Assembly (NCBI GenBank): GCA_021513715.1
Contig: CP084167.1
Span: 1,792,001 to 1,856,000 of the forward strand
Direction of reading: 5' to 3'
DNA from: Candidatus Heimdallarchaeum endolithica
GTDB lineage: Archaea; Asgardarchaeota; Heimdallarchaeia; Heimdallarchaeales; Heimdallarchaeaceae
DNA: 64,000 bases
Made by a program: the position numbers and the translations under genes. A model generated the notes under the pieces. It ran no database searches, had not been told where the DNA came from, and saw only the letters and a list, made by a program, of their open reading frames with translations. Of the stretch, positions 47,878-48,611 are shown piece after piece (the stretch's first letter is position 1; every line of letters starts with the position of its first letter).

Positions 47878-48194
47878 CTTCAGCTAACCTAATTGCTGTG
47901 ACAATATCGTTTGCTTGATGACAATGCATATTTAGAGGAATCTCTCTGCGTAACACTTTCACAAGTATTTCTTTACCTATATCTCGTTCTGGTTCTGAAG
48001 GTATTTTCTCTTTTTCTCCCTTCTCAAAAGCAAGTTTTTTCTTTGCTTCATATTCTTCCCATTTTTTAGCATAATTTCGTGCTTCTACAAAAGTTTTTCT
48101 AAAAACTGCAGCATTTCCCATTCTTGTAGAGGGAAGTTTCTTATCTGTTCCATAAACTCTTTTTGGATTTTCACTTAAAGCTGACTTTAAACAT

Positions 48195-48566
48195 GAGATA
48201 CTTTTTTACGTAAAAACTAAATTTTTAGTTTGTGGAGTTATTAGACCAATAACAACCTGAAACACATTTGCTTAAATAAAACATACAAAATATTGGGGAG
48301 TGTAACAACTTTTCAGCTATCTTTATATATTTAATTCTCATTTATGTAGTGTCTTGAGCTAGATGCTTAAAGACGTAGGTTTCATTCCTACGACACCCGG
48401 TCTTCCCTTTGGGAGTTATGAGTGCCCGGGGTAAGGAGATGAACCCCTTAGAGAACTTAATTAAGACTGTGTCTTTCATGTTCTCTTAAGCCAGTCTTCA
48501 CAACTTTCGCTAAGTTTGTTGATTGGTTGGGGAGAGTCCTGAAGAAATTACGTAAAATTTCAACTC
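48195..48566 (+). mobile_element. 372-bp non-autonomous element (MITE / internally deleted IS) of unrecognised family
   Basis: Interrupts the amidohydrolase C-terminus; AT (or CATG) on both sides; GAG...CTC ends; TTTTACGTAA inverted repeats 9 bp inside each end; related ends at 24990 and 41487. Confidence 0.8.
48349..48450 (+). ncRNA. Structured RNA candidate inside the element
   Basis: TATA TTTATATA at 48322-48329; stems GTGTC/GACAC, TTGAGC/GCTTAA, GTAGG-TTTCATT-CCTAC, CCCGG/CCGGG, TTCCC/GGGAG, TAAGG/CCTTA. Confidence 0.5.
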
Positions 48567-48611
48567 ATGATTAATGGAAGTATAGCTTACAAAAAAGAAG
48601 AGTAAAATCAA

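Follow-up and report, generated by a model that had tools for sequence, protein, structure and literature searches.

A protein-less mobile element with an omega-RNA-like scaffold, probably derived from a TnpB-only transposon, in an amidohydrolase pseudogene of Candidatus Heimdallarchaeum endolithica

The stretch of DNA analysed here, 64,000 nucleotides of Candidatus Heimdallarchaeum endolithica (contig CP084167.1, positions 1,792,001 to 1,856,000; called the window below), contains an amidohydrolase gene that is interrupted by a 372-bp insert. A first-pass annotation of the window described this insert as a small mobile element flanked by AT (or CATG), with GAG/CTC ends, inverted repeats 9 nt inside each end, a TATA box at 48322 and a structured RNA. 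The flanks, body, ends, repeats and TATA box are all present in the sequence at the positions it gave. We will call the insert the mini-element; its parts, in window coordinates, are listed here.

48195–48566, + strand: body of the mini-element (G...C, GAG/CTC ends), 372 bp; the boundaries are set by the loss of flank similarity among 16 full-length copies.
48193–48194, no strand: left copy of the AT core, within the CATG at 48192–48195, from the sequence and from the single N-AT-N at empty sites of the sister genome.
48567–48568, no strand: right copy of the AT core, within the CATG at 48566–48569, from the sequence and the sister-genome empty sites.
48195–48216, + strand: left end, GAGATAC followed by the sub-terminal palindrome TTTTTTACGTAAAAA (48202–48216), in the CATG-N6-TTTTTTACGTAA design of the resident 1.86-kb tnpB elements.
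48544–48566, + strand: right end, the imperfect palindrome GAAATTACGTAAAATTTC (48544–48561) and then AACTC, from the sequence and the copy alignment; the terminal AACTCAT(G) is also found in tnpB family C and in sister-genus tnpB elements.
48322–48329, + strand: archaeal TATA-like box TTTATATA, some 22 nt before the conserved RNA module begins, kept in all copies, including subfamilies with an unrelated left spacer.
48349–48566, + strand: putative scaffold of omega-RNA type, about 220 nt long and with several stem-loops, from alifold, covariance-model matches at tnpB 3' regions, covariation and the fold z-score.
48351–48375, + strand: putative decayed remnant of a tnpB 3' end, GTCTTGAGCTAGATGCTTAAAGAC (V L S * M L K D against VLSQWLxT), which is also the first RNA hairpin, from by-eye comparison with the element L193 (described below) and TnpB C-termini.
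48569–48590, + strand: predicted guide segment in the host flank, which also encodes the C terminus of the amidohydrolase; the prediction follows the model of TnpB omega RNAs.

The insert is a real multi-copy, protein-less mobile element. BLASTN and nhmmer searches of the single-contig 3.33-Mb genome found 16 full-length copies (87–99% identity) and about nine partial ones, and 11 copies exist in the sister species Ca. Heimdallarchaeum aukensis PM71 (CP084166.1), while BLASTN detected none in 39 other genomes of the family or order. The longest open reading frame (ORF) within 48195–48566 has only 45 amino acids (aa), there is no protein-level conservation and the copies differ by indels. The short frame MNPLENLIK... 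pointed out earlier does start at 48440; the peptide remnants read from this part of the insert have no protein meaning, and the real gene remnant appears to be the decayed tnpB codons at about 48351–48375. The motif TTTTACGTAA and its complement begin 9 nt inside the respective ends. Between subfamilies the left spacer is only 43–55% identical, compared with 67–85% for the termini and 73–94% for the RNA module, and the TATA box is retained. Since the termini, TATA box and RNA are kept while the left spacer differs completely, selection appears to act on these modules at the level of propagating copies. Truncated copies start or stop at internal (C/T)ATG sites, one being joined at such a site to an unrelated element's right end. 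In a chimera of the sister genome (L060, 2602596–2602760) a TTGTACAA-type element has its right end (…TTGTACAAAAAAGTTATTCATG) joined through the CATG to the interior of the mini-element, at position 226, a junction whose sequence implies recombination between the AT cores of different elements.

The flanks of all copies have only CAT(G/A) in common, and at least 18 insertion sites agree in nothing beyond C-AT-G. Ten insertions have an empty counterpart in the sister genome, with the tetranucleotide present once, and the reverse comparison provides further cases. Which part of the tetranucleotide is shared can be read from targets that differ from CATG. Five of the six informative junctions favour a 2-bp AT core, as the first-pass annotation had preferred: the fourth base on the left is the element's G, and the fourth base on the right is that of the target. 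Thus targets CATA (twice), CATT and TATA became CATG...CATA or CATG...CATT, and at a GATA target, which became GATG...CATA, both outer bases behave as for an AT core. Only the central AT therefore appears to be common to the target and both junctions, a picture that would be expected from either a 2-bp duplication or a conservative 2-bp exchange; given these junction comparisons, a 4-bp CATG target duplication is less likely.

At 5 of 12 sites the CATG found here reads CAAG, CACG or CGTG in the sister genome (also at its 1722087–1722091), with the outer C and G kept and the centre different. Escape from the target-adjacent motif and core conversion were considered, but since the flanks are only ~85% identical, ordinary divergence suffices and is probably the cause. 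At about 2122726–2122741 of the sister genome, orthologous to a tnpB element at 2031510–2033370 here, there is a 14-nt filler, TGGATTTACCATAA, which resembles an element tip and may be an excision footprint.

The right-hand part of the mini-element is predicted to fold into a stable RNA. For the 221 nt starting at 48349 the computed folding energy is −67.5 kcal/mol (z = −2.8 relative to dinucleotide shuffles, 1 of 200 of which did as well), while the opposite strand is weaker (−59.7 kcal/mol), and the fold is strand-specific because of its G-U pairs. A long-range helix pairs AUGAGU (48417–48422) with the terminal ACUCAU (48563–48568); the equivalent helix in the resident tnpB family is AUGAUU with AAUCAU. 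Covariation, suggested earlier as a check, is seen in a 30-sequence alignment fitted to the covariance model described below: 93.9% of the cells are paired, compared with 72.6% after shuffling and ~40% with the partners slid, 32 of 43 pairs have changed on both sides, and the covariation score is 0.43 versus 0.14. The compensatory changes maintain helices of RNA type, G-U pairs included, well away from the terminal binding sites. Together with the copies, the empty sites and the conserved TATA box, the fold agrees with the original description of a small non-autonomous mobile element with a conserved structured RNA and its own promoter, the role that TTTATATA would play judging by its position and conservation. 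An Rfam scan of 48100–48700 with E up to 10 returned only chance microRNA and small nucleolar RNA matches. A C/D-box or k-turn reading of UGAUGA...CUGA was also considered and was abandoned in favour of omega-RNA homology.

What is this RNA then? We built a covariance model (CM R1; model positions 1–176) solely from 13 diverse mini-element copies (positions 203–378). It matches 13 resident tnpB loci over its full length, on the tnpB strand and ending exactly at the right element boundary, with 17–33 bits (E 2e-7 to 4e-3 in 63 kb, filters off), while the best background match is 10 bits in the 63-kb tnpB set and 11 bits in the 64-kb window that served as control. These filter-free searches of defined loci were used because the whole-genome CM search scored only the top first-pass candidates; in that search the resident tnpB matches were not re-found. 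The link to the tnpB 3' regions is visible only with the covariance model: BLASTN and nhmmer searches with element profiles, run against the genome and the tnpB 3' regions, detected no significant similarity in primary sequence beyond the mini-element family, except for the last ~45 nt. Across 83 genomes of the class, CM R1 matches are confined to the same family, where they occur in 13 of its 30 other genomes. Those in the sister genera score 27–49 bits (best 39–49) and lie either in register 3' of tnpB or in analogous protein-less elements. At three loci (L194, L195, L210) the match starts ~10 nt past the stop codon of tnpB ORFs of 492–495 aa, at four (L199–L202; ~33–38 bits) it starts ~40–60 nt past tnpB ORFs of 479–486 aa, and at four more (L193, L207, L214, L198) it sits within protein-less elements of another genus. 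Metagenomic relatives have the same arrangement as the sister-genus tnpB/omega-RNA loci, and the sister-genus RNAs share long blocks with the window copy, e.g. AATGAGTCCCGG.GAGGAGATGAACCC and TTGGGTTGGGAAGAGTCCT. These matches indicate that the mini-element carries an omega-RNA scaffold: in structure its RNA is homologous to the stretch that begins directly 3' of tnpB and continues up to the right boundary.

The ends of the element lead to the same transposons. The genome has ~25 TnpB zinc-ribbon matches. One resident family encodes 483-aa proteins in elements of 1.85–1.88 kb whose left boundary is CATG-N6-TTTTTTACGTAA and whose right boundary is TTACGTAAAAAA-N6-CATG; ~235 nt of non-coding DNA separate the tnpB stop codon from the right end. 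The design CATG-N6-TTTTTTACGTAA ... TTACGTAA-N10-CATG is common to the mini-element and at least five intact 1.86-kb tnpB elements. Other tnpB families have the same end geometry with different palindromes, e.g. TTGTACAA, and one of them finishes in ...AACTCATG, as the mini-element does. The 483-aa TnpB contains a Cas12f1-like TNB domain (Pfam), its RuvC region aligns to a solved TnpB, and several of the resident tnpB genes are intact.

A mini-element of another genus (L193) shows how such a derivative is put together: its left end and TATA box are followed by ~25 nt, the intact last 22 codons of tnpB (VLSQWLETKQSHLLTPGAGVRT*) and lastly the scaffold with the right end. In the window element the order is the same, with the tnpB codons decayed. 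With a probability of about 0.8, we therefore read the insert as a non-autonomous, protein-less derivative of a TnpB-only (IS1341-like) transposon that arose by internal deletion. The earlier suspicion of an internally deleted transposase gene holds as far as the deletion is concerned; the deleted gene would be tnpB, encoding an RNA-guided nuclease and not a transposase. In the scenario that we propose, the deletion would have removed nearly all of tnpB, joining the left end and TATA box to the last codons, the full scaffold and the right end. The promoter would drive a ~220-nt RNA that reads across the right boundary, so that each copy would make a guide matching its own right flank. The guides of TnpB omega RNAs start at the right transposon boundary (PMC10055086, PMC10691335), and by this analogy 48569–48590 would be the guide of the read-through RNA. 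PATEs frequently code for omega RNAs that act in trans (Meers et al. 2023, PMC10055086), as standalone omega RNAs also do (Altae-Tran et al., as cited in PMC10691335). In the same way a resident TnpB might use the guide in trans to cut the empty allele (C-AT-G plus flank), favouring retention of the element. An enzyme encoded elsewhere would move the element, exchanging or duplicating only the central AT of a preferred C-AT-G, and the same enzyme acting in cis between an element end and a nearby site could produce adjacent inversions and deletions, here and beside two other copies.

Several observations weigh against parts of this picture. One of the six informative junctions, CATA...CATA at a CATA target, is better explained by a 4-bp duplication, and the fitting of the covariation alignment to the covariance model biases its counts towards structure. 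The resident TnpBs have VVVGYP at the position of the canonical RuvC-II glutamate motif, so their activity would rest on a relocated glutamate; TnpB clades with a rearranged catalytic site have been reported (PMC10691335). Searches of this genome and of 2.4 Mb (78%) of its sister did not turn up the tnpB lineage whose scaffold is closest. The TnpBs in this DNA are only 37–43% identical to that lineage, and the scaffolds of the resident ones score 17–33 bits on CM R1 against ~210 for the mini-element. Because the closest lineage was not found and the resident scaffolds match weakly, use of the mini-element scaffold in trans is uncertain. Finally, profile searches for Y1, DDE_3, DEDD and serine-recombinase proteins and scans for inverted-end pairs identified no mobilising enzyme.

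Some of these points would suit a different account, in which the insert is a dead-end deletion derivative with no cognate TnpB, its RNA module being a relic or a cis-acting stretch of DNA (an extended right end) and not a functional guide. As far as was searched, the closest TnpB lineage is missing from both Heimdallarchaeum genomes, and single copies decay about evenly after insertion (in c2631, for example, the spacer is at 96% and the RNA at 93%). Against this, the TATA box and the whole 220-nt module are kept across subfamilies in which the left spacer has been replaced, and compensatory changes preserve helices, including G-U pairs, away from the terminal binding sites. In addition, a protein-less derivative in another genus, apparently of independent origin, is built in the same order of TATA box, last tnpB codons and scaffold, and the scaffolds of resident TnpBs from the same broad clade match in structure. 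We regard a dead end as unlikely. The assignment originally favoured, to the IS110/IS1111 elements, whose bridge RNA pairs with target and donor for a DEDD recombinase, carries next to no weight. The likeness is superficial and lies in the 2-nt core, the sub-terminal repeats and the long structured non-coding segment next to the transposon end. The mini-element lacks a DEDD recombinase, and PF01548 (DEDD_Tnp_IS110) has no match in the genome, while six control genomes were positive. There is no extended conserved target either, the at least 18 insertion sites agreeing only in C-AT-G where a programmed target would span 11–14 nt. Rfam gives no match, and the RNA belongs, by the homology described above, to the TnpB omega-RNA lineage. 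The other early suggestion, a DDE insertion sequence with a structured 5' UTR (untranslated region), also finds no support: no full-length copy contains a DDE gene and the genome has no IS630-type DDE.

The closest relatives in kind of this derivative of a TnpB-only transposon are PATEs and standalone omega RNAs. Like them it is protein-less and multi-copy, with ends as on tnpB elements of the same genome, an omega-RNA scaffold abutting the right end and a need for TnpB in trans. It differs in its Asgard host, its putative archaeal TATA-type promoter and its symmetric ends with a sub-terminal palindrome. It also has a 2-bp AT core at both junctions, whereas PATEs are inserted 3' of a tetranucleotide by Y1 TnpA, and neither genome contains a matching TnpA, while the closest cognate TnpB lineage occurs in other genera. 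The parent elements resemble IS1341-type members of the IS200/IS605 family in having only tnpB and an omega RNA between short ends, with the transposase in trans, but the ends of the mini-element are not the asymmetric hairpin ends of IS605.

The amidohydrolase gene itself carries traces of the recombination. In the sister genome its orthologue is an intact ORF of 400+ aa. Here BLAST against the sister genome shows a region that is collinear, then inverted, then collinear again.

47399–48196, − strand: inverted middle of the amidohydrolase gene, 734 bp, with breakpoints at the CATG at 47401–47404 and at the element's left junction, CATG 48192–48195, from BLAST against the sister genome.

The element does sit in the gene, as first described, but it does not simply split it after ...KLT: the KLT codons lie 0.8 kb upstream on the minus strand (~47405), the middle of the gene (47405–48192) being inverted relative to the sister orthologue. 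Besides the inversion and the mini-element there are two other lesions. An in-frame nonsense TGA at 47304–47306 replaces the GGA (Gly in ...IQTGPGSGNVIGG...) of the sister orthologue, and at 47780–47877 a 34-bp stretch of the gene is directly duplicated around a 30-bp insert, GTGAGGTAATTAGATAATTACCGATCAATA, with an internal palindrome. The inserted sequence occurs nowhere else in the two genomes, the sister orthologue included, and may have been left as a footprint by another element. With these four independent lesions the gene is a pseudogene. Two further copies of the mini-element have rearrangements next to them: beside the right end of the copy at 1601379 there are a 621-bp inversion and a 151-bp deletion, whose junctions fit exchange within AT dinucleotides, and the copy at 1129107 stands in place of ~2.1 kb present in the sister genome. 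Such adjacent inversions and deletions, like the truncated copies, would be easier to reconcile with site-specific double-strand exchange at a palindromic core than with Y1 transposition, which works on single strands.

Which enzyme could be responsible? Motif and inverted-end pair scans show that elements with these ends carry nothing but tnpB or RNA, never a transposase, and scans of genome and metagenome contigs with TnpB proteins found only tnpB-only loci, bounded by CATG/CATT, with no neighbouring transposase. Y1 "peel and paste" would leave a target-derived tetranucleotide on the left and an element-borne one on the right, with asymmetric ends, while five of the six sites have the element's G on the left, and the ends are symmetric. 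The sole Y1_Tnp gene of the genome (925129–925479) adjoins an 87% mini-element copy. The IS605-like tnpA-tnpB element to which it belongs (923.8–926.0 kb, interrupting a MazG-like gene) was rejected as autonomous parent: it has its own, different hairpins (CCCACGG.../...GGTGGG), and the mini-element is merely nested between the left hairpin and the start of tnpA. This tnpA also looks frameshifted in its 5' part, with the ATG out of frame with the rest of the gene, and the sister genome has no Y1 tnpA. IS607 offers another parallel, with its TnpB association, sub-terminal imperfect inverted repeats and a target that is promiscuous apart from the core. In IS607 a dinucleotide is common to target and junctions without a longer duplication (PMC6188088); the AT core supported here may correspond to this, but a 2-bp target duplication by another enzyme would look alike, and the IS607 dinucleotide is GG and not the AT of a preferred CATG. 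A PF00239 search of the genome found no IS607-type TnpA (N-terminal helix-turn-helix and C-terminal catalytic domain); it gave only two single-copy serine recombinases of ~245 aa, of resolvase type with an N-terminal catalytic domain, outside any element (405351–406097, 316725–317447). Homologues of these paralogues, at 73–78% identity, are present in 28 of the family's 30 genomes and missing from all 52 genomes from elsewhere in the class. This range matches that of the family-restricted AT-core elements and would be weak, non-independent evidence for a role as movers.

The alternative for mobility is a DDE cut-and-paste reaction with a 2-bp AT duplication at the palindromic C-AT-G, instead of serine-type exchange or Y1 transposition. 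IS630/Tc1-mariner elements, which would be its model, target C-TA-G and duplicate TA. The symmetric, inverted-repeat-like ends and the central dinucleotide of a palindromic tetranucleotide on both sides are similar here, and the sister-genome filler that resembles an element tip is what an excision footprint would look like. Associations of TnpB with IS630-type DDE transposases and symmetric ends have also been reported (PMC10691335). On the other side, the dinucleotide is AT and not TA, the nucleotides just inside it vary between ends and families while the sub-terminal palindrome is conserved, which is unusual for DDE ends, and a search for IS630-type DDE_3 (PF13358) gave no match in the genome. 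Neither does any element with these ends have a transposase, and plain inversions or deletions that link an element end to a bare AT site, with no second copy involved, are more typical of site-specific recombination. Overall, DDE transposition seems to us improbable.

Other debris of the family is found in the window. Two further family ends had been announced for it; those found are the fragment given below and the isolated TnpB-type ends that follow.

41484–41625, − strand: degenerate right-end/omega-RNA fragment of the mini-element family (nhmmer; CM R1, 41 bits, E = 1.5e-9).

Elements of the same end design have left a C-terminal tnpB fragment of a 445-aa family at 22721–22942 (− strand) and isolated TnpB-type right ends (TATGATTTACTTTCTTACGTAAGTTTTTCGC...) at 24989–25040 and 30626–30647. 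At 45919–46857, immediately upstream of the amidohydrolase, there is an rve-type (IS481/IS3-like) transposase in two ORFs, unrelated to the AT-core family.

The mini-element thus belongs to an already known kind, that of PATEs and standalone omega RNAs, of which it is a variant in its Asgard host, symmetric ends, 2-bp AT core, no recognisable transposase and no close cognate TnpB found in the genome. What is newly seen is the inversion in the amidohydrolase between two CATG sites, one of which is the left junction of the element, and the adjacent inversion or deletion at two other copies. A wider and more speculative view, which we hold to be doubtful but worth stating, is that the AT-core elements, comprising several tnpB lineages and the guide-RNA-only minis, are a distinct transposon type of one Heimdallarchaeal family, moved in trans by an enzyme not encoded in the elements (the serine recombinase pair being one candidate), with the minis read by distantly related resident TnpBs. 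If so, the family would maintain a shared pool of guide RNAs whose recombination side-reactions invert or delete host DNA at any nearby AT site.

For annotation, the result means that the ~25 "structured RNA islands" of the genome do not represent a new class of RNA; they are probably omega-RNA relics left by a single transposon family. The paper on the two Heimdallarchaeum genomes describes abundant repeats and transposases and makes no mention of TnpB, miniature inverted-repeat transposable elements (MITEs) or omega RNAs (PMC8813620). The combination of TnpB/omega-RNA cargo, symmetric ends and an AT core with no recognisable transposase leaves a mobilising enzyme to be found, and the CATG-bounded inversion and end-adjacent deletions suggest that the same machinery reshapes host genes. 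To our knowledge, guide-RNA-only hitch-hikers of TnpB systems have so far been described in bacteria. They would arise in Asgard archaea too, where such derivatives appear to have originated at least twice with the same architecture of promoter, last tnpB codons and scaffold.

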